From a virus (taxonomy: Duplodnaviria; Heunggongvirae; Uroviricota; Caudoviricetes), in the IMG/VR virus record IMGVR_UViG_2579778982_000017: a stretch of 33,426 bases of DNA. One strand, given 5' to 3'. Under the pieces are notes generated by a model, which was not told the origin of the DNA, ran no database searches, and saw nothing but the letters and a program-made list of their open reading frames with translations. Within the stretch, counting starts at the first letter, position 1, and every line of letters starts with the position of its first letter. A program made the translations under genes and the position numbers. Positions 2,940 to 31,996 of the stretch are shown piece by piece.

Positions 2940-3143
2940 TTGGTAAAAAGTTGAACATTGCTTTTTTATTGATCGATTAACCACGATGTGAAGGTTTTTT
3001 TATGGGAAAACCTTGTTTTAGGTGGTAACTGGGTGTAGTGTTTCATTTAACGTAGTAAAACTGCGTTAAGCGATTACCGCGTAATTTGTTGCTTTATGAA
3101 GCCCTGCCTTTTTCGGCGGGGCTTTTTTTTAACGAGGATTTCA
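2940..3143 (+). promoter_or_regulatory. Putative late promoter / antitermination region upstream of the lysis genes
   Basis: Non-coding; TTGAAC at 2951-2956 as possible -35, no convincing -10; hairpin AAGGTTTT/AAAACCTT (2991-3014) and a second hairpin plus T8 at 3101-3130, arranged like lambdoid pR'-qut-tR'. Confidence 0.35.
3101..3130 (+). terminator. Intrinsic terminator (tR'-like) just upstream of the holin
   Basis: GCCCTGCC-TTTTTC-GGCGGGGC stem-loop followed by TTTTTTTT; GAGG RBS and ATG 3144 follow directly. Confidence 0.6.
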
Positions 3144-3822: not shown

Positions 3823-4351
3823 GATTTTTAACAGCGTTCTTGGAAAAGAGGGCGGCTATGTGGATCACCCTGACGACAAGGGAGGCCCAACAAAGTGGGG
3901 CATTACTCAGAACACTGCCCGTGCTCATGGATATCGTGGCGATATGCGCGATTTAACCCGCGAACAGGCACTGGAAATCCTTGAGGCTGATTACTGGTAC
4001 GGACCACGCTTTGATCAGGTGGCCGCATTATCCTCTGATATTGCCGCAGAGCTGTGTGACACGGGGGTGAACATGGGGCCAACAGTGGCGTCAAAAATGC
4101 TTCAACGCTGGCTGAATGTGTTCAACCTGCGCGGGAAGCTGTATCCCGATTTGGATGCAGACGGACGAATCGGTCCACGTACCATTAATGCGCTACGTGC
4201 TTATCTTGGGAATCGGGGAAAAGACGGCGAACGGGTGATGCTGACGTCGCTGAACTGTACGCAGGGCGAACGCTATCTGGAGCTGGCGGAGAAGCGCGAG
4301 GCTAATGAGTCGTTTGTCTACGGCTGGATGAAAGAGCGAGTGGTGGTATGA
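3809..4351 (+). CDS. Endolysin, GH108-type muramidase with C-terminal peptidoglycan-binding region
   Basis: N-terminal EGGYVDHPDDKGGPTKWGIT is characteristic of GH108 lysozymes; sits between membrane proteins and spanins. Confidence 0.85.
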   Translation: MTKDEIFNSVLGKEGGYVDHPDDKGGPTKWGITQNTARAHGYRGDMRDLTREQALEILEADYWYGPRFDQVAALSSDIAAELCDTGVNMGPTVASKMLQRWLNVFNLRGKLYPDLDADGRIGPRTINALRAYLGNRGKDGERVMLTSLNCTQGERYLELAEKREANESFVYGWMKERVVV

Positions 4352-4626
4352 CTGGTTTGAAGGCCGTTTTGTCATTTATTGGCACAATTATATTGGTTGC
4401 ATTCGGCGCGTTTGGTTTTGGTCGTATGAAGGGGCGAGAAAAGGCCGAAGATGAAGCTGAAAAGCAGCGCATTAATGAGAATGCAGCCGCCGTAAAAGCC
4501 ACTGCGGAGCGGCGTATAGAAGTGACAAAAGAGGTGGGGAATGTACAGCAGAGTGTTAACCATATGGCTGATGACGATGTTGATCGCGAGCTGCGGGAGT
4601 CGTGGAAGCGTCCCGGTGGTGGTTGA
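4348..4626 (+). CDS. i-spanin (Rz-like)
   Basis: N-terminal transmembrane helix then charged, coiled-coil-like region; directly after the endolysin; contains the embedded o-spanin. Confidence 0.6.
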   Translation: MTGLKAVLSFIGTIILVAFGAFGFGRMKGREKAEDEAEKQRINENAAAVKATAERRIEVTKEVGNVQQSVNHMADDDVDRELRESWKRPGGG

Positions 4627-4750
4627 TACCGCCTGTGATTGGGTAAAGCCCATCTACCTGACTGATCACGACATCGATGTTATGGACCGCCAGACAAAGA
4701 AAGATATTCTGGCTCATAACAGGGCATGGGAAATCAACTGCCCAAAGTAA
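4541..4750 (+). CDS. o-spanin (Rz1-like lipoprotein), overlapping the i-spanin in another frame
   Basis: Signal peptide with lipobox-like LIASC, short Pro/Val-rich mature part; classic Rz/Rz1 overlap. Confidence 0.6.
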   Translation: MYSRVLTIWLMTMLIASCGSRGSVPVVVDTACDWVKPIYLTDHDIDVMDRQTKKDILAHNRAWEINCPK

Positions 4751-4785
4751 TATATATTTCTGTAATTATATAAATATATAGTTAC
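4749..4785. repeat. AT-rich element, copy B
   Basis: Contains AATTATATAAATATATA, sharing an exact 15-mer with copy A; immediately after the o-spanin stop. Confidence 0.5.
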
Positions 4786-4919
4786 AACATTCTATGCGCT
4801 TTTCTCATGAGCGCACGCATCAACCATGTTTGTCTGATATGCCGCCGCGCCCAAAAATCCTGAATTTATTGGCTGGGATTTTCGTGCGCGGCGCCACACC
4901 AGACAAACAGATCAAATAT

Positions 4920-4995
4920 GGCCCCTTAGCTCAGTGGTTAGAGCAGGCGACTCATAATCGCACGGTCATCGGTTCAAATCCGGTAGGGGCCACCA
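4920..4995 (+). tRNA. tRNA with anticodon CAU, most like tRNA-Ile2 (ileX-type) rather than elongator tRNA-Met; 3' CCA encoded
   Basis: 76 nt, GGCCCCT/AGGGGCC acceptor stem, GTGG D-loop, anticodon loop CTCATAA (CAT at 4953-4955), GGTTCAAATCC T-loop. First ~42 nt match my recollection of E. coli ileX. Confidence 0.85.
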
Positions 4996-5202
4996 ATTCA
5001 CTCTCACACATAAAGATAAGCGCGGTGGAGTTACTTCCTTCGTGCTCATCTTTATGCGTGCCTGGTGCGCATTTCGGGCGAACGTGGGGCTAAGTTACAG
5101 GCAGGGCCTGTTATCCGCAAAGGGGTAAAAGCTGGAGCGGCACGGAACTGTAGCCGTGTTACCAAAACAGCGTTGTCGGGCGATATCCGGCACACAACAG
5201 GC

Positions 5203-5245
5203 AAGGGCATTAATCAGTCTGGTTAGTGCCCTTTTCGTTGTGTTT
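5203..5245 (+). terminator. Possible intrinsic terminator in the tRNA-methyltransferase spacer
   Basis: AAGGGCA...TGCCCTT stem followed by TTTCGTTGTGTTT; loop is long so the call is weak. Confidence 0.3.
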
Positions 5246-5303
5246 GCTGTAGAGCTGGCCAGCGTTATGACTGCCGGAGATAAGCGCCGGAGACACAACT
5301 AAC

Positions 5304-5891
5304 ATGGAGGCAATTGCATTGTTTAATCTGATTTATGCAGATCCCCCCTGGGAATACAAAGACAAGTGTAAGGATGGGAATCGTGGCGCTGGTTTTAAGT
5401 ATCCAACGATGAAAGCTGAGGATATTGCTCGTATTCCTGTCTGGCAGCTTGCTAATCCTGAATCGTGTTTGTTGGCCATGTGGTGGGTTCCGACTCAGCC
5501 AGAAGAAGCGTTGCTGGTGGTGAAAGCATGGGGATTCAGGCTGATGACCATGAAGGGCTTCACATGGAACAAATGTGGTAGCCGACAACCAGATAAGCTG
5601 GTGATGGGGATGGGGCATATGACTCGTGCAAACAGTGAAGATTGCTTGTTTGCAGTGAAAGGCAAACTACCGACACGTCTTGATGCGGGGATCATTCAGT
5701 CGTTTACATCGCCTCGTCTGGAGCATTCTCGGAAGCCTGATGTGGTCCGTGACAAGCTGGTAAAGCTGTTAGGCGATGTTCCTCGTATTGAGCTGTTTGC
5801 TCGCGGTGATTTACCTGATGGCTGGCATGGCTGGGGCAACCAGTGCAACGGAGGTATCCAGTTGCATGATGCTCTCTGGCAAGTGTCATAG
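5304..5891 (+). CDS. DNA N6-adenine methyltransferase, MT-A70 family (orphan, no nuclease partner seen)
   Basis: N-terminal IYADPPWEY (DPPW catalytic motif) in a ~195-aa protein; GGAGA upstream of ATG 5304. Confidence 0.8.
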   Translation: MEAIALFNLIYADPPWEYKDKCKDGNRGAGFKYPTMKAEDIARIPVWQLANPESCLLAMWWVPTQPEEALLVVKAWGFRLMTMKGFTWNKCGSRQPDKLVMGMGHMTRANSEDCLFAVKGKLPTRLDAGIIQSFTSPRLEHSRKPDVVRDKLVKLLGDVPRIELFARGDLPDGWHGWGNQCNGGIQLHDALWQVS

Positions 5892-5922
5892 AATTATATA
5901 ATTATAGATTTATATAAAAAGT
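5888..5922. repeat. AT-rich element, copy C
   Basis: ATAGAATTATATAATTATAGATTTATATAAAAA, sharing ATAGAATTATATA with copy A; overlaps the methyltransferase stop. Confidence 0.5.
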
Positions 5923-6003
5923 GCTTTACAGGTGGGAAAAAATTTCCTATGGTTATACCCGAAACCGAGCGATACCCGCCCTGGTTAAACCGGAGATAAC
6001 CCG

Positions 6004-6273
6004 ATGAAAGTACAAGACCGTGAAGTAGTAAAAAAACTCCTGCAATACCTGACCTCAAAAAACCTGACGGGCAGCGTTGAGTTCCGTGAAGCGTTAAAAC
6101 ATTTCAACGTCACTACGGTTTATCGTTGGGAAAACAAACATTCTGAAAGACCGTATGTGGTGGATGTTTTTGCGCCTGATATTGAGTGCGGTTTTGAGCG
6201 CCATTCATTCAAAAAGAAACATTCCGCTGATGTTTTTTGTGAGGTTGTATGTGCGGCAGGAGATGATGAGTGA
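6004..6273 (+). CDS. Hypothetical protein (89 aa)
   Basis: ATG 6004 with GGAG upstream; stop overlaps the next ORF start. Confidence 0.5.
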   Translation: MKVQDREVVKKLLQYLTSKNLTGSVEFREALKHFNVTTVYRWENKHSERPYVVDVFAPDIECGFERHSFKKKHSADVFCEVVCAAGDDE

Positions 6274-6470
6274 TGCGTATTTCCTTCAAACGTGCGACTG
6301 AGCAGCAACGCAAAGAGTTCCTGGCTGATGATGTTGCGGCCGTTTATGACTTCATGAAAGAGGTTGTGGAATCAGGGAACTACACGGCGGCAAAGATGCT
6401 TAAACTGCAATTCTTGCTGGGCGACCTGAAATACAAATCCGAAGTTGTCGCCGGACGACGCGAGCATTAA
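6270..6470 (+). CDS. Hypothetical protein (66 aa; alternative ATG start at 6273)
   Basis: GTG 6270 / ATG 6273 overlapping upstream TGA, AGGAG at 6258-6262; followed by a strong terminator. Confidence 0.45.
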   Translation: MMRISFKRATEQQRKEFLADDVAAVYDFMKEVVESGNYTAAKMLKLQFLLGDLKYKSEVVAGRREH

Positions 6471-6493
6471 ACCGTAACGATAACGAACAATAA

Positions 6494-6519
6494 GCCTCGG
6501 CAATTGCCGGGGCTTTTTT
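6494..6519 (+). terminator. Intrinsic terminator
   Basis: GCCTCGGCAA/TTGCCGGGGC stem (one G-U pair) followed by TTTTTT. Confidence 0.65.
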
Positions 6520-6544
6520 ACATCCAGACAAAGGAGAACATGGG

Positions 6545-7000
6545 ATGCCTTCGACAAGCACCAAAAAAGAAATGGCGGTTAGTGATGTGCTTTACGCGCT
6601 TTCGACTATATGTGACGGAGCAATGATGAGGATGAAAGTCCTCCATGAAGCATACGGAAAAAGTCACGATGAGGCAGCCAAAGAGTGCCTGAATGAGATT
6701 GTGGACTTCCTTGATAGCCATCGGTCGCTGATAGCTCTCGATAACCAGCCGCAAGCCGAAGAATGCCAGAAGCGCGAGTATAAAACGATATATGGGAATA
6801 AGTTCTCCTGTCTAAGCGAGTTGGCTGCAAAGGTGGCCGACATTCTGGAGAACAACAGCGGTCGAATGCATCAGGTTAGATATCAGTCTGAATATGAAGC
6901 TCTAATCATGTTAGTTGATCAGTTAGTTGATACCGGAGCTTTACAGCTCAACTGCGTAAGGCTATCTGGTCATCCGATAAAAATGAATGGAAGGATATAA
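6545..7000 (+). CDS. Hypothetical protein (151 aa)
   Basis: ATG 6545 with AAGGAG at 6531-6536; no motif recognised. Confidence 0.55.
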   Translation: MPSTSTKKEMAVSDVLYALSTICDGAMMRMKVLHEAYGKSHDEAAKECLNEIVDFLDSHRSLIALDNQPQAEECQKREYKTIYGNKFSCLSELAAKVADILENNSGRMHQVRYQSEYEALIMLVDQLVDTGALQLNCVRLSGHPIKMNGRI

Positions 7001-7002
7001 CC

Positions 7003-7209
7003 GTGGACTTGCCGAGTGATTTGTTCTGGTTTCCGCTTCCAATAAGAGATTTGTTGGTATTTCTGGCTGGCGCTTACGTCTGGAGAAAAGCGAAAGACAC
7101 CTCGTTATCTTTGAGGTTTGTCTTAGCTATATCGGTAGGAACCGCGCTGGGTACGGCGTATCTCTTGATATTACTGGAGGTATTCATTGAAAAATGGATA
7201 GTTTCATGA
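7003..7209 (+). CDS. Small membrane protein (68 aa, two hydrophobic helices)
   Basis: GTG start 3 bp after upstream stop; two hydrophobic stretches; stop overlaps next start (ATGA). Confidence 0.4.
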   Translation: MDLPSDLFWFPLPIRDLLVFLAGAYVWRKAKDTSLSLRFVLAISVGTALGTAYLLILLEVFIEKWIVS

Positions 7210-7358
7210 ATGGTCTTGGCATTTTTCTGATGATTGTGGCCGTGTGTTTCTGTATCTCGCTGGTGGTTATTGCTGGTGTCCTGTGGCGCATCTTAGTGGC
7301 GCAGAGAGCTTTTCGGCTTAAGCGGGAGCAAATGCGCCTTGATTTCTATCGAAAGTAA
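7206..7358 (+). CDS. Small membrane protein (50 aa), not in the supplied ORF track
   Basis: ATG 7206; single transmembrane helix then basic tail (RLKREQMRLDFYRK); ends 8 bp before a terminator. Confidence 0.4.
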   Translation: MNGLGIFLMIVAVCFCISLVVIAGVLWRILVAQRAFRLKREQMRLDFYRK

Positions 7359-7366
7359 CTCTTACA

Positions 7367-7395
7367 GCCTCGCGGTGTCGCGGGGCTTTTATTTT
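7367..7395 (+). terminator. Intrinsic terminator
   Basis: GCCTCGCG-GTGT-CGCGGGGC hairpin followed by TTTTATTTT. Confidence 0.65.
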
Positions 7396-7406
7396 CAGGT
7401 GATGTT

Positions 7407-7817
7407 ATGGAAAAGAAAGAAGATAAACCGATTGCCATTGGTGCAGAGTCTGTTCCGTTTAAGTTTGAATTATCCCAACTGGTAACAATGCGTATCAGTG
7501 AAGAGTGGGGAGAAGTTCAAGCCCGTGCTCAGTATGCAAATGGCGAAAACCAGTATTTGATTCACTATCAGGCGGCTGATGGTCGTGCTACCACAGAGTG
7601 GTTCGGTGAATCGATGTTGATTGCGATGGAAGATGATCGTTATCCAGGCTGCCCTGTTTTTGCCTGTGTTGATTTGCCAGAAGGCGCGGTACTTGAAGAC
7701 GACAAAGAAGAATGCTCGTCTGATGGCGAACTTGTCATTACCGGAATCGTTGATGGTAAGCCGGAATACTCTCGTATTGAGGTAAATAACGGCCGCATCC
7801 GTTTGATCCCTGCGTAA
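7407..7817 (+). CDS. Hypothetical acidic protein (136 aa)
   Basis: ATG 7407 with AGGTGA upstream; no motif recognised. Confidence 0.55.
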   Translation: MEKKEDKPIAIGAESVPFKFELSQLVTMRISEEWGEVQARAQYANGENQYLIHYQAADGRATTEWFGESMLIAMEDDRYPGCPVFACVDLPEGAVLEDDKEECSSDGELVITGIVDGKPEYSRIEVNNGRIRLIPA

Positions 7818-7878
7818 CGCATTACAGCAGCTCTTGTGCTTATCAGGGGCTGCGATAATGCGCAAACCAAAGCTGCCT

Positions 7879-7923
7879 CATTAACTCCAGCTCGCTGTGG
7901 AGTTAATGCTGGTGGCTTTTTTA
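7879..7923 (+). promoter_or_regulatory. Perfect 11-bp inverted repeat hairpin with downstream T-run (terminator or operator)
   Basis: CATTAACTCCA-8 nt-TGGAGTTAATG, then CTGGTGGC and TTTTTTA; in the 234-bp spacer upstream of the first ParB-like gene. Confidence 0.35.
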
Positions 7924-8051
7924 TTACTGGAAGGTGGGCGACCGCCGTCAGTTGCGACCTGACGACAGTCATTCATACCCACAGGGTGCCGTGGATACAA
8001 ACCGAGGCCCACTTGCTTGCACAAGCGAGGGGATTTTAGCGGATAAACGGC

Positions 8052-8675
8052 ATGACAAAACATCTTAATGTGGTTTCTTTACCACTTTCTGTGTTGATTG
8101 GTTATGAAAAGAACGCTCGCACACACTCCGTGGAGCAGGTAGATCAGATTGTTGCCAGCATACAGGAGTACGGATGGACTAATCCGATCCTGATAGACGA
8201 GAACAACGTTGTAATTGCTGGTCATGGTCGAATTGCTGCGGCCACTCAGTTGGGGATGGATGAGGTTCCCTGCATTGTTCTGGAAGGGCTAACGGAGAAT
8301 CAGAAGAAGGCATATCGTCTGGCCGACAACCGTATTCCGCTGAATGCTGGTTGGGATGAAGAGTTGTTAAGCGCGGAGCTTGCAGATCTTGCGGCCGATG
8401 ATTTTGCTCTGGACTCAATTGGTTTTACTCAGCGCGAACTGGATAACTTATTGAGTGCGGCGGTCTACGATGACACAGAGGGTATGGATATCCCATTTGA
8501 GAAGGATGAGGCCAAATCAGGCGTAAAAGTTCAGTACCTGTCATTTGGAGGTCATAAAATCCCGGCAACGGATGAGGAAGCGGATCGTTTTGACTGCGCG
8601 GTGTCTCGTTATGTTGATGATAATGGCAGCTATATCGGATTTGTATCCGCATTGCTGGCTGGGGAGGTGTGCTGA
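8052..8675 (+). CDS. ParB-like N-terminal (ParB/Srx fold) domain protein with acidic C-terminal region
   Basis: PILIDENNVVIAGHGRIAAATQLGMDEVPCIVL and QKKAYRLADN are ParB N-domain-like; stop overlaps next start (TGATG). Confidence 0.75.
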   Translation: MTKHLNVVSLPLSVLIGYEKNARTHSVEQVDQIVASIQEYGWTNPILIDENNVVIAGHGRIAAATQLGMDEVPCIVLEGLTENQKKAYRLADNRIPLNAGWDEELLSAELADLAADDFALDSIGFTQRELDNLLSAAVYDDTEGMDIPFEKDEAKSGVKVQYLSFGGHKIPATDEEADRFDCAVSRYVDDNGSYIGFVSALLAGEVC

Positions 8676-29761: not shown

Positions 29762-31996
29762 GTGAGTAAATTATTATTTACGATGACTGACGCCGGGCGT
29801 CAGGAGCTGATTAATGCCAACAAAACAGGAACAAATAAAGTTGAGATTGTTTCTGTTGGTTTAGGTAGTAGATATTATGTCACGTCAACTTCACAAACAA
29901 ATATAACAAACGAAATAAAACGACTTACCACAATAGGTGGCAAAGTTGTTTCCCCTGATACAATTCATGTAACAGCGAAGGATGATAGTAAAGATGAGTA
30001 CGTTGTCCATACAATAGGATTGTATACGAATAAGGGTACGTTGTTTGCTGTATACTCACAAGAACAAGCAATAATAAATAAAGCATCATCTACTATCGCT
30101 TTAATATCAAGTGATATAGCAATTAAAACTCTTGATACTAAAAATATTACATTTGGTGATATTGAGTTTATTAATCCTCCCGCGACCGAAACTGTTGTTG
30201 GGGTGGCAAGATTTGCTAATGAACAAGAAATTGATGCAGGTACAGATGATTCCCTTGCTGTTTCAGCAAAGCGGCTTAAGCAAGCCATTGTGAAACATGA
30301 GCAATCACGTAATCATCCTGATGCAACTTTAACCTCAAAAGGCTTTGTTCAACTTAGCTGCGCCACCAATAGCACGTCTGAAACGCTTGCTGCGACGCCT
30401 AAGGCTGTTAAGGCAGCATATGACCTGGCTAACGCTAAATACACCGCACAGGACGCTACCACAGCGCGAAAAGGGATTGTTCAGCTCAGTAGTGCCACCA
30501 ACAGCACGTCTGAAACGCTGGCAGCAACACCAAAGGCTGTTAAGGCAGCGTATGATCTTGCGGCCGGAAAGGCTCCGTCCAATCACACGCATTCGTGGGA
30601 GCAGATAACAAATGTGCCTGTAGCTTCACTGACTGTAAGGGGAATAACTCAGCTCAGTAGTGCCACCAACAGCACGTCTGAAACACTGGCCGCGACATCG
30701 AAAGCTGTAAAGGTGGTAATGGATGAAACGAACAAGAAAGCGCCCCTGAACAGTCCGGCGCTGACCGGAACACCAACAACACCAACTGCGCCAAAAGGTA
30801 CTAACAATACTCAGATCGCAAGCACGGCTTATGTTATGGCTGCGATCGCTGCCCTCGTGGACTCGTCGCCTGACGCACTGAATACGCTGAACGAGCTGGC
30901 TGCGGCGTTGGGCAATGACCCGAATTTTGCGACCACCATGACTAACGCGCTTGCGGGTAAGCAACCGAAAGATGCCACCCTGACGGCGCTGGCCGGGCTT
31001 GCTACTGCGGCAGACAGGTTTCCGTATTTTACGGGGAATGATGTCGCCAGCCTGGCAACTCTGACAAAAGTCGGGCGGGATATTCTTGCGAAATCGACCG
31101 TTGCCGCCGTTATCGAATACCTCGGTTTGCAGGAAACGGTAAACAGGGCTGGTAACGCCGTGCAAAAAAATGGCGATACCTTGTCCGGTGGGCTTACTTT
31201 TGAAAATGACTCAATCCTTGCTTGGATTCGAAATACTGACTGGGCGAAGATTGGATTTAAAAATGATGCCGATGGTGACACTGATTCATACATGTGGTTT
31301 GAAACAGGCGACAACGGCAATGAATATTTCAAATGGAGAAGCCGCCAGAGCACCACAACAAAAGACCTGATGACGCTGAAATGGGATGCACTAAATATTC
31401 TGGTAAATGCCGTCATTAATGGCAGTCTTGGAGTTGGTACGACGAATGCGTTAGGTGGTAGCTCTATTGTTCTTGGTGATAATGACACCGGATTTAAACA
31501 GAATGGAGACGGTATTCTGGATGTTTATGCTAATAGTCAGCGTGTATTCCGCTTTCAGAATGGAGTGGCTATTGCTTTTAAAAATATTCAGGCCGGGGAT
31601 GGTAAAAAATTCACGCTATCCAGCTCCAACACCTCCACAAAGAATGCAACGTTTAATTTATGGGGTGCTTCAACCCGTCCAGTAGTTGCAGAGTTAGGCG
31701 ATGAGGCAGGATGGCATTTCTATAGCCAGCGAAATACAGATAACTCGGTAATATTTTCTGTTAACGGTCAGATACAGCCCAGCAACTGGGGGAATTTTGA
31801 TTCACGCTATGTAAAAGATGTTCGCCTGGGTACGCGTGTTGTTCAATTGATGGCGCGTGGTGGTCGTTATGAAAAAGCCGGACACGCAATTACCGGATTA
31901 AGAATCATTGGTGAAGTAGATGGCGATGATGAAGCCATCTTCAGACCAATACAAAAATACATCAATGGCACATGGTATAACGTCGCACAGGTGTAA
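29762..31996 (+). CDS. Tail fibre protein (P2 gpH / Mu S-like) with repeats and an invertible C-terminal portion
   Basis: 744 aa; GTG start as in the track; three copies of the (Q)LS.ATNSTSETLAATPKAVK fibre repeat; C-terminus [14 protein letters not shown]...[14 protein letters not shown] also found in the oppositely oriented partial ORF at the window end. Confidence 0.85.
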   Translation: MSKLLFTMTDAGRQELINANKTGTNKVEIVSVGLGSRYYVTSTSQTNITNEIKRLTTIGGKVVSPDTIHVTAKDDSKDEYVVHTIGLYTNKGTLFAVYSQEQAIINKASSTIALISSDIAIKTLDTKNITFGDIEFINPPATETVVGVARFANEQEIDAGTDDSLAVSAKRLKQAIVKHEQSRNHPDATLTSKGFVQLSCATNSTSETLAATPKAVKAAYDLANAKYTAQDATTARKGIVQLSSATNSTSETLAATPKAVKAAYDLAAGKAPSNHTHSWEQITNVPVASLTVRGITQLSSATNSTSETLAATSKAVKVVMDETNKKAPLNSPALTGTPTTPTAPKGTNNTQIASTAYVMAAIAALVDSSPDALNTLNELAAALGNDPNFATTMTNALAGKQPKDATLTALAGLATAADRFPYFTGNDVASLATLTKVGRDILAKSTVAAVIEYLGLQETVNRAGNAVQKNGDTLSGGLTFENDSILAWIRNTDWAKIGFKNDADGDTDSYMWFETGDNGNEYFKWRSRQSTTTKDLMTLKWDALNILVNAVINGSLGVGTTNALGGSSIVLGDNDTGFKQNGDGILDVYANSQRVFRFQNGVAIAFKNIQAGDGKKFTLSSSNTSTKNATFNLWGASTRPVVAELGDEAGWHFYSQRNTDNSVIFSVNGQIQPSNWGNFDSRYVKDVRLGTRVVQLMARGGRYEKAGHAITGLRIIGEVDGDDEAIFRPIQKYINGTWYNVAQV
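30336..30700 (+). repeat. Three imperfect tandem ~115-130-bp coding repeats inside the tail fibre gene
   Basis: DNA repeats beginning near 30340, 30472 and 30640, each encoding the ATNSTSETLAAT...KAVK unit; they generate the spurious ORFs 30335-30592 (-) and 30345-30608 (+). Confidence 0.8.
31110..31135. other. Candidate site-specific recombination crossover site (gix/cix/hix-like) for a Gin/Cin/Pin/Hin-family invertase
   Basis: TTATCGAATACCTCGGTTTGCAGGAA matches the Mu gix sequence as I recall it (TTATCCAAAACCTCGGTTTACAGGAA) at 23 of 26 positions, with the ACCTCGGTTT core identical; it lies inside the fibre ORF. Confidence 0.6.

Follow-up and report, generated by a model that had tools for sequence, protein, structure and literature searches.

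We analysed 33,426 nucleotides (nt) of viral DNA (Caudoviricetes; IMG/VR record IMGVR_UViG_2579778982_000017), referred to below as the window, and focused on a cassette of three small open reading frames (ORFs), g1, g2 and g3, that lie on the + strand between two intrinsic terminators, T1 and T2. An earlier note had described this segment (6545-7395) as an autonomous, moron-like unit in the late region. The three ORFs were found where that note had put them, at 6545-7000 (g1), 7003-7209 (g2) and 7206-7358 (g3), and their proposed coupling was evident: the GTG start codon of g2 falls 2 nt past the g1 stop codon, and g3 starts within an ATGA overlap with the stop codon of g2. For comparison we used close Escherichia and Yersinia-phage loci together with two divergent relatives, the 47-kb IMG/VR contig L017, of the Salmonella type, which was the key comparator, and the Citrobacter-type L023.

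The product of g1 is a protein of 151 amino acids (aa), predicted to be soluble and mainly helical. A Shine-Dalgarno sequence, AAGGAG, lies 8 nt 5' of its ATG, and the hydropathy profile has no hydrophobic segment. Over its whole length (residues 1-151 of 151) g1 matches phrog_14707 (function unknown; E 3.6e-102), as do the distant members P0018, P0029 and P0022. An AlphaFold2 model of g1 (pLDDT 63.6) contains four helices, and a fold search with it gave no informative neighbour; the model of the longer homologue P0029 was too poor for use (pLDDT 44.7). From the alignment, the architecture of the g1 family consists of an N-terminal helical hairpin, optional inserts, a C-domain of ~75 aa and a beta-rich tail (SITVNSPAITVSAPAITITG), with sizes of 81-323 aa arising through domain gain and loss. 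The window protein has the hairpin (residues 1-62) and the C-domain (~72-140) and lacks the tail. Most E. coli plasmids of the family encode instead a 99-aa g1 with the tail present and the C-domain absent; here the C-terminal 90 residues (6726 to 7010) are swapped for 38 others, and the end of the gene overlaps the g2 start. The plasmid of E. coli ATCC 25922 (CP009073) has this 99-aa g1 together with g2 and g3. These deletion variants are still in frame and retain an overlap or a Shine-Dalgarno sequence for g2. Profile searches found g1 homologues only in related phage-plasmids of E. coli, Salmonella and Citrobacter. Two other candidates from a full-library HMMER search, P0019 and P0021, were dropped as spurious repeat or zinc-finger proteins.

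The second gene, g2, would encode a 68-aa membrane protein, and its GTG start codon is preceded by GGAAGGA. Two helices had been predicted for it. By hydropathy one of these is certain (residues ~38-62), while the other, a weaker N-terminal segment at ~7-27 that carries R15/D16, is plausible. The basic loop RKAKD between the two segments predicts an N-out/C-out topology, unlike that of class II holins. A core of the protein, LLVFLAGAYVWRKAKDTSLSLRFVLAIS, is invariant in 11 close haplotypes, and the gene is intact in 10 of 11 close loci and present on at least 1000 contigs. Between L017 and the window, synonymous sites of g2 are saturated (proportion of synonymous differences, pS, ~0.98; of non-synonymous differences, pN, 0.36). 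In GenBank the g2 product of strain ATCC 25922 is named 'putative membrane protein' (AIL18660.1).

For g3, the predicted product is a 50-aa single-pass membrane protein (N-out, C-in). An alternative ATG at 7194 would give 54 aa; the alignment with divergent homologues favours 7206. Hydropathy agreed with the single helix and basic tail that the earlier note had described, with one very hydrophobic segment at residues 6-27 followed by a tail containing 8 K/R. The juxtamembrane motif R-I-L/F-V-x-Q-R/K is conserved, and the segment RILVAQRAFR is invariant in the 11 close haplotypes, among which the amino-acid changes in g2 and g3 are mostly conservative swaps inside transmembrane (TM) helices. 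The g3 homologues of L017 and L023 are 30-38% identical to that of the window and share its architecture; L017 keeps the TM helix, the R-I-L-V-x-Q-R motif and the basic tail. In vB_YpM_41 and vB_YpM_44, both isolated as phages, a 1-nt deletion cuts g3 to 29 aa, and other frameshifted forms occur in some contigs.

Gene order in L017 is that of the window: T1, a 246-aa g1, a 67-aa g2, a 50-aa g3, a terminator, and then g4, the next gene downstream. Identity to the window is 76% (MT-A70) and 81% (ParB) in the flanking genes, and 49% (g1 C-domain), 45-51% (g2) and 30% (g3) in the cassette. Because all three ORFs, their order and the terminators are kept at only 30-50% protein identity, we conclude that the ORFs are real genes. 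The comparison shows three real proteins, which would be made from one mRNA by translational coupling. The expectation that the frames would be intact in relatives thus held for L017, where all three are open, and failed in part elsewhere: in L023 g2 is absent and g3 directly follows g1, and g3 is frameshifted in some members. Exact family sequences of g1-g3 are present on hundreds to more than 1000 contigs. RefSeq/PGAP annotates g1 and g3 (the latter as WP_001013684.1) and omits g2.

A strong terminator at each end of the cassette, also proposed earlier, was confirmed by folding. T1 (6492-6521, + strand; hairpin 6492-6515) lies 30 nt 5' of the g1 start and has a 10-bp stem with 7 GC pairs, an AATT loop and a T6 tail; its folding energy (dG) is -18.3 kcal/mol (z -5.8), and 0/200 shuffles were as good. 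T2 (7366-7395, + strand; hairpin 7366-7387) lies right after g3 and 20 nt before g4, with a 9-bp stem, a dG of -16.6 kcal/mol and a z of -5.2 (again 0/200 shuffles as good). Of the + strand terminators in the first 20 kb, both are in the top four, and T1 occurs only once in the window. The DNA of T1 is nearly identical in L017 and L023, with flanking coding sequence that has diverged to ~60% identity. The position of T2 is likewise held by a terminator in L017 and L023, with a different stem sequence; this change is compensatory at the level of the predicted structure. T2 is missing from variants that carry a DUF2513 gene or a tail-fibre fragment, in which it has been replaced together with the C-terminus of g3. 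Judged from their conservation in L017 and L023 and from their position before gene starts, T1 and T2 are functional elements. In L017 (4682-4972) and L023 (4681-4972) we also observed a second terminator after the homologue of orf66, the gene preceding T1, and then a ~250-nt non-coding spacer that leads to T1; this spacer is absent from the window.

The T1 hairpin was also observed far outside this family. Exact copies of its 24-mer (6494-6517; GCCTCGGCA[N]TTGCCGGGGCTTTT) occur in at least 120 IMG/VR viral contigs; among the matches listed, 5 belong to the phage-plasmid family, and the rest form 41 upstream and 27 downstream flank clusters (median GC 0.58). The hairpin is often followed, after 10-25 nt, by a Shine-Dalgarno sequence and ATG, or else by a second long hairpin. 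Matches of ~90% are found in P22-like phages, and in phage epsilon34 the site is annotated as a terminator. The idea that T1 is a family-specific regulatory site was dropped because the same 24-mer is widespread in unrelated phages. This spread may reflect convergence or the horizontal movement of a 'portable terminator'.

To be an autonomous unit, the cassette would need a promoter of its own. A scan of the + strand from 5953 to 8500 found no sigma-70-like site, and the distance from T1 to the g1 ATG is only 29 nt. The nearest upstream promoter-like site (5925-5953, + strand, TTTACA-17-TATGGT) lies 5' of T1. It is part of a promoter-leader element (5886-6007, + strand) made up of an AT-rich block, the TTTACA-17-TATGGT site, a 45-nt leader, GGAG and an ATG. 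Behind this element are orf89 (6004-6273) and orf66 (6270-6470), both on the + strand, which match phrog_6143 and phrog_6621 (both function unknown) and constitute variable cargo between the promoter element and T1. The layout of promoter, genes and terminator therefore belongs to the upstream unit, 5886-6519, which consists of the promoter-leader, orf89, orf66 and T1. Since the promoter-leader would drive orf89 and orf66 and this unit ends at T1, g1-g3 would be transcribed only by read-through of T1.

Four strong + strand terminators were observed within 4.3 kb, at 3098-3125, 5203-5233, 6492-6515 and 7366-7387. Each lies shortly 5' of a gene start (those of a holin gene, the MT-A70 gene, g1 and g4, respectively), with no promoter between. 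This pattern points to read-through or processive antitermination in this phage. The region would then be transcribed as a chain in which each link needs read-through of a terminator, either partial or by means of a phage antitermination function. Transcription of g1-g3 would depend on RNA polymerase that has passed T1 from the 5925-5953 promoter or from further upstream, and, because read-through is needed, T1 and T2 would serve as attenuators or antitermination checkpoints. Such gating would keep the membrane proteins low or confined to lytic development.

The promoter-leader is itself repeated. Three near-identical copies of ~115-120 nt, each ending at a start codon, are found per plasmid genome, the others at 40742-40863 and 31355-31481 of family member L011, and the element is also present in L017. 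The genes behind the three copies are orf89, a 126-aa ORF beside RelE/HTH (helix-turn-helix) genes, and a DUF3560 gene, an arrangement that suggests three co-regulated transcription units.

DNA searches assigned the region to a family of ~46-51-kb circular, non-mobilizable plasmids found in E. coli, E. fergusonii, E. albertii and some Salmonella. Of 5,426 complete E. coli genomes, 69-76 carry a member. The 48,488-bp plasmid of ATCC 25922 belongs to the family, as do the plaque-forming Yersinia phages vB_YpM_39, vB_YpM_41 and vB_YpM_44. A complete member encodes RepA and ParA, an XRE repressor and a RelE/ParE pair. Early genes open a single long run of co-oriented genes, in which holins, a GH108 endolysin, a tRNA and the MT-A70 methylase precede g1-g3; ParB-like/methylase genes, the terminase, the head genes and a P2-like contractile tail follow. 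From this gene content, plasmid genes together with lysis genes, terminase and a P2-like contractile tail, we conclude that the window derives from a myovirus-type phage-plasmid. The late-region location given in the earlier note was therefore correct, with g1-g3 sited between the lysis genes and the packaging genes.

All 11 Escherichia and Yersinia-phage loci that were fetched had the cassette at the same place; it was also present in 5 loci from IMG/VR and in both divergent lineages, Salmonella and Citrobacter. Homologues of g1, g2 and g3 were found only on 44-54-kb contigs of the phage-plasmid family (word-indexed profile searches in the case of g1 and g3). Its removal was seen solely as part of larger deletions, in L016 and in plasmid pN10e of E. 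coli N10. In pN10e (L151 8212-8872) the tRNA abuts a slightly shortened ParB/Srx gene, and MT-A70, orf89, orf66 and g1-g4 are gone; the head-tail block of this plasmid is duplicated as well, possibly because of a rearrangement or an error in assembly. A deletion in one IMG/VR contig extends from g2 codon 43 into g4.

Exchange was observed on both sides of the cassette. In the upstream hot spot, cargo has been exchanged or lost between a left breakpoint at 6009 or 6027 and a right one at 6269 or 6475-6486. Downstream, some members have other sequence in place of the last ~8 codons of g3, T2 and g4 (7331-7336 to 7427 or 7819). Besides a 241-nt deletion, the changes seen at 6009-6486 and 7331-7819 were alternative ORFs of 87 and 66 aa, a DUF2513 gene, and a tail-fibre-assembly fragment with a 141-aa ORF.

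These results bear on the moron question. By the Juhala/Hendrix definition, derived from lambdoid phages, a moron is a gene with its own promoter and terminator that has been inserted between two genes found side by side in relatives. If the cassette were a true moron, it would be transcribed on its own from the resident phage-plasmid, and its small membrane proteins would confer superinfection exclusion or abortive infection. It shares with lambdoid morons a 3' terminator (T2), a location in the late-region mosaic hot spot between lysis and packaging genes, and small accessory products. Terminators on both sides, cargo swapped on either side of the cassette, g2/g3 allelic variation concentrated in the TM helices, and a g1 as hypervariable as an arms-race gene is expected to be are all in keeping with such a unit, as is the example of the P22-like phage epsilon34, which has accessory genes behind a similar terminator in an analogous post-lysis position. 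Lambdoid morons differ from g1-g3, however, in having their own promoter, insertion polymorphism and deviant composition. No promoter was found directly upstream of g1, activator-dependent kinds lying outside the scan, and T1, which closes the preceding unit, would stop upstream transcription in the prophage state. The GC content over 6545-7395 is 0.44-0.48, against 0.44-0.56 in the flanks, and is thus not deviant. Because the cassette is in essentially all members, divergent lineages included, it does not split a gene pair that is contiguous in other members; we saw no presence/absence difference among collinear relatives. Nor was there an exclusion or defence match in PADLOC or Pfam: the PADLOC match of g1 to PtuB (13.9 bits, E 0.0067) is not meaningful, and g2 and g3 had no PADLOC match. 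The absent promoter and the absent insertion polymorphism argue against a classical moron expressed from the carrier state, and we regard a true moron as unlikely. The autonomous layout claimed in the earlier note was thus not supported: the scan found no promoter in the T1-g1 interval, the GC content is unremarkable, the family carries the cassette almost throughout, and it is the upstream unit that holds the promoter.

The proximity of the cassette to the lysis genes raised a second alternative, namely that g2 and g3 are antiholin-like or holin-modulating proteins made with the late genes as an auxiliary lysis-timing module. The cassette is co-oriented with the lysis cassette and 2.2 kb downstream of it, and g2 and g3 resemble holin/antiholin pairs in size, TM content and charged tails or cytoplasmic segments. 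The lysis set upstream comprises two holin-family genes, a GH108 endolysin and an i-spanin/o-spanin pair. The i-spanin-like ORF (4348-4626), after the endolysin gene, encodes a 92-aa protein that has a TM helix at its N-terminus and is charged at its C-terminus; the o-spanin-like ORF (4541-4750), unannotated, overlaps it in another frame and encodes 69 aa with a lipobox, MYSRVLTIWLMTMLIASCGS. With this pair already present at 4348-4750, the possibility that g2 and g3 are themselves spanins was dropped. Since the lysis cassette is complete upstream, canonical lysis does not require g2 and g3. In addition, a tRNA, a methyltransferase, two ORFs and two terminators separate the cassette from the lysis genes. 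Neither protein matched a holin family in Pfam or PHROGs, g2 having no match at all and g3 just sub-threshold ones (PGG, Vpu and CcmD), and the predicted N-out/C-out topology of g2 is unlike that of class II holins. We therefore think a role as a lysis-timing module quite unlikely, even though a homologue of the g1 C-domain was found two genes past a holin gene in an unrelated phage.

That homologue is the 94-aa P0022, which corresponds to the g1 C-domain alone and is encoded on L026 (4113-5935), a Logan contig (ERR13998665) with a lambda-like terminase. The order on L026 is a holin-family gene, a 148-aa ORF, P0022, a g4 homologue and a small TM ORF, with terminase genes downstream, which again puts homologues of the g1 C-domain and g4 in the lysis-to-packaging interval. 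Because the g1 C-domain stands directly before the g4 homologue there, we conclude that the two travel together across unrelated phages. In the window, g4 (7407-7817, + strand) is the neighbour 3' of T2 and encodes 136 aa that match phrog_1935 (function unknown). Beyond it, a 235-nt non-coding spacer (7818-8051) before the ParB/Srx gene is kept in every mosaic variant, including those in which g4 has been replaced. The spacer may be the site of a late promoter or another regulatory element; it contained no sigma-70 consensus and no Rfam match.

Searches for a function were negative. No functional family could be assigned to g1-g4 or to the ORFs upstream with Pfam, PHROGs, NCBIfam or PADLOC, PDB sequence-profile searches with g1, g2 and g3 found nothing, and in an Rfam scan of 4500-8200 the tRNA alone reached threshold. 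Profiles of g2 and of the long form of g1 had no matches in species-representative genomes. The accessions of the g1-g3 proteins were not mentioned in the literature searched; a paper on Yersinia phage HQ103 was set aside as dealing with a different, 32-kb phage, and one on enterotoxigenic E. coli as dealing with P1-like and SSU5-like elements.

Superinfection-exclusion proteins such as T4 Imm and Sp, P22 SieA/SieB and HK97 gp15 are very small inner-membrane proteins, encoded singly or in pairs, non-essential and fast-evolving. g2 and g3 are like them in size, predicted membrane site, apparent dispensability and fast evolution, but no sequence or profile similarity was detected, and Pfam and PHROGs gave no homology to exclusion proteins of the Imm/Sp, Sie, Sim or Cor types.

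A counterpart of g3 was found in epsilon34 gp67 and Sf6 gp65 (phrog_11822, function unknown), which, like g3, have 50 aa, an N-terminal TM helix and a polar tail. The epsilon34 gene is the last one after Rz/Rz1 and precedes a terminator of near-identical type, AGCCTCG...CGGGGCTTTTTTACATC, between lysis and accessory genes, and g3 is placed likewise. In the epsilon34 sequence (L149 1315-1530; a Salmonella phage) gp67 stands immediately before the AGCCTCGCATTTGCGGGGCTTTTTTACATC terminator, which makes it a positional and architectural analogue of g3 and of T2/T1. The two proteins differ in that they have no detectable sequence similarity and belong to different PHROGs.

The size and shape of g3 (~50 aa, one TM helix, a polar, charged tail), along with its location on a plasmid, also recall type I toxins such as Hok/Gef and TisB. 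If the cassette were a module for addiction or for a small toxin, g3 would serve as the Hok/TisB-like membrane toxin, restrained by attenuation, by coupling or by an antisense RNA, and would help to stabilise the plasmid. A weak leftward promoter-like site at 7498-7469 could give rise to an antisense RNA, but this site lies inside g4 and is replaced in several variants. There was no homology to Hok/Gef or another toxin family in Pfam, no antisense RNA in Rfam and no recognisable fold-back leader. In contrast to type I toxin genes, g3 is translationally coupled to two upstream genes, g2 and g1, in a polycistronic lytic-region layout. Furthermore, the plasmid already has a RelE/ParE system and ParA, and frameshifted g3 alleles persist. 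An addiction function is, in our judgement, very improbable.

The turnover of g1 domains, the loss of g2, the truncation of g3 and the larger deletions together indicate that the cassette is conserved but dispensable, and it looks accessory. They also raise the question of whether g1-g3 are decaying baggage, that is, remnants of a longer ancestral operon that are kept by linkage and have little or no present function. Under this explanation the two forms of g1, N-domain plus C-domain in the window and N-domain plus tail in most plasmids, would be deletion derivatives of a longer ancestor; the loss of g2 in L023, the frameshifted g3 of some members and the weak purifying selection on g3 are also in line with it. 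Nevertheless, the three frames are open across lineages whose synonymous sites are saturated, the protein cores are invariant, the coupling signals are kept, and the g1 deletion variants remain in frame with the overlap or Shine-Dalgarno sequence of g2 preserved. We consider general decay decidedly improbable.

On balance, although with limited confidence, we favour the reading that g1-g3 are a conserved accessory cassette of ~45-50-kb myovirus-type phage-plasmids of Enterobacteriaceae, which has no promoter of its own and is transcribed by read-through of T1. In this reading g2 and g3 would probably assemble into a small complex within the inner membrane and have g1 as their partner on the cytoplasmic side, and the products would be made in low or antitermination-gated amounts during lytic growth. 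The cassette would probably alter a property of the envelope that is relevant to competition or timing, for example by excluding incoming related DNA or by fine-tuning lysis; an essential step in virion production is an unlikely role for it. A role of the accessory or arms-race kind suits genes that are dispensable and whose alleles turn over fast.

Several points weigh against the accessory-cassette reading. Membrane insertion, topology and the g2-g3 complex are predicted from hydropathy, and a role at the envelope, in exclusion or in timing is proposed by analogy, not homology, the family, defence, PDB and fold searches having been empty. Purifying selection on g3 is weak (pN/pS ~0.5-0.7), with 6 non-synonymous changes and 1 synonymous change between close alleles, and, given this weak constraint, the frameshifted variants and the g1 deletions, parts of the cassette could be decaying. 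As to transcription, the consensus scan was blind to a non-sigma-70 or activator-dependent promoter that overlaps T1. The ORFs upstream included no recognisable antiterminator gene, Q-like or otherwise, and for that reason we can only infer the read-through step along the chain of terminators.

A bolder proposal, which we hold to be quite unlikely, is that g1-g3 constitute an undescribed envelope-acting competition system of phage-plasmids. Here g2 and g3 would form a minimal inner-membrane complex whose co-varying TM alleles, together with a swappable cytoplasmic tail, set specificity; g1 would be a modular cytoplasmic adaptor, and the whole would be gated by read-through of T1 as a 'portable' terminator, found verbatim in more than 100 unrelated phages.

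As it stands, the cassette is a set of ordinary family-specific conserved hypothetical genes that belongs among the small membrane proteins of the phage accessory repertoire. The most unusual observations are the verbatim spread of the T1 hairpin over unrelated phages and the thrice-repeated promoter-leader. For annotation, the analysis corrects the family record by adding g2, which is missing from RefSeq. For the organisation of this phage, its terminator-flanked gene groups would be links of an attenuated or antiterminated chain, not autonomous insertions. Such phage-plasmids are often met in clinical E. coli, and the reference strain ATCC 25922 carries one, which would make an experimental set-up easy. 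Should the cassette prove to have a phenotype, a family-specific system of small membrane proteins would be added to the poorly charted accessory repertoire of phage-plasmids.

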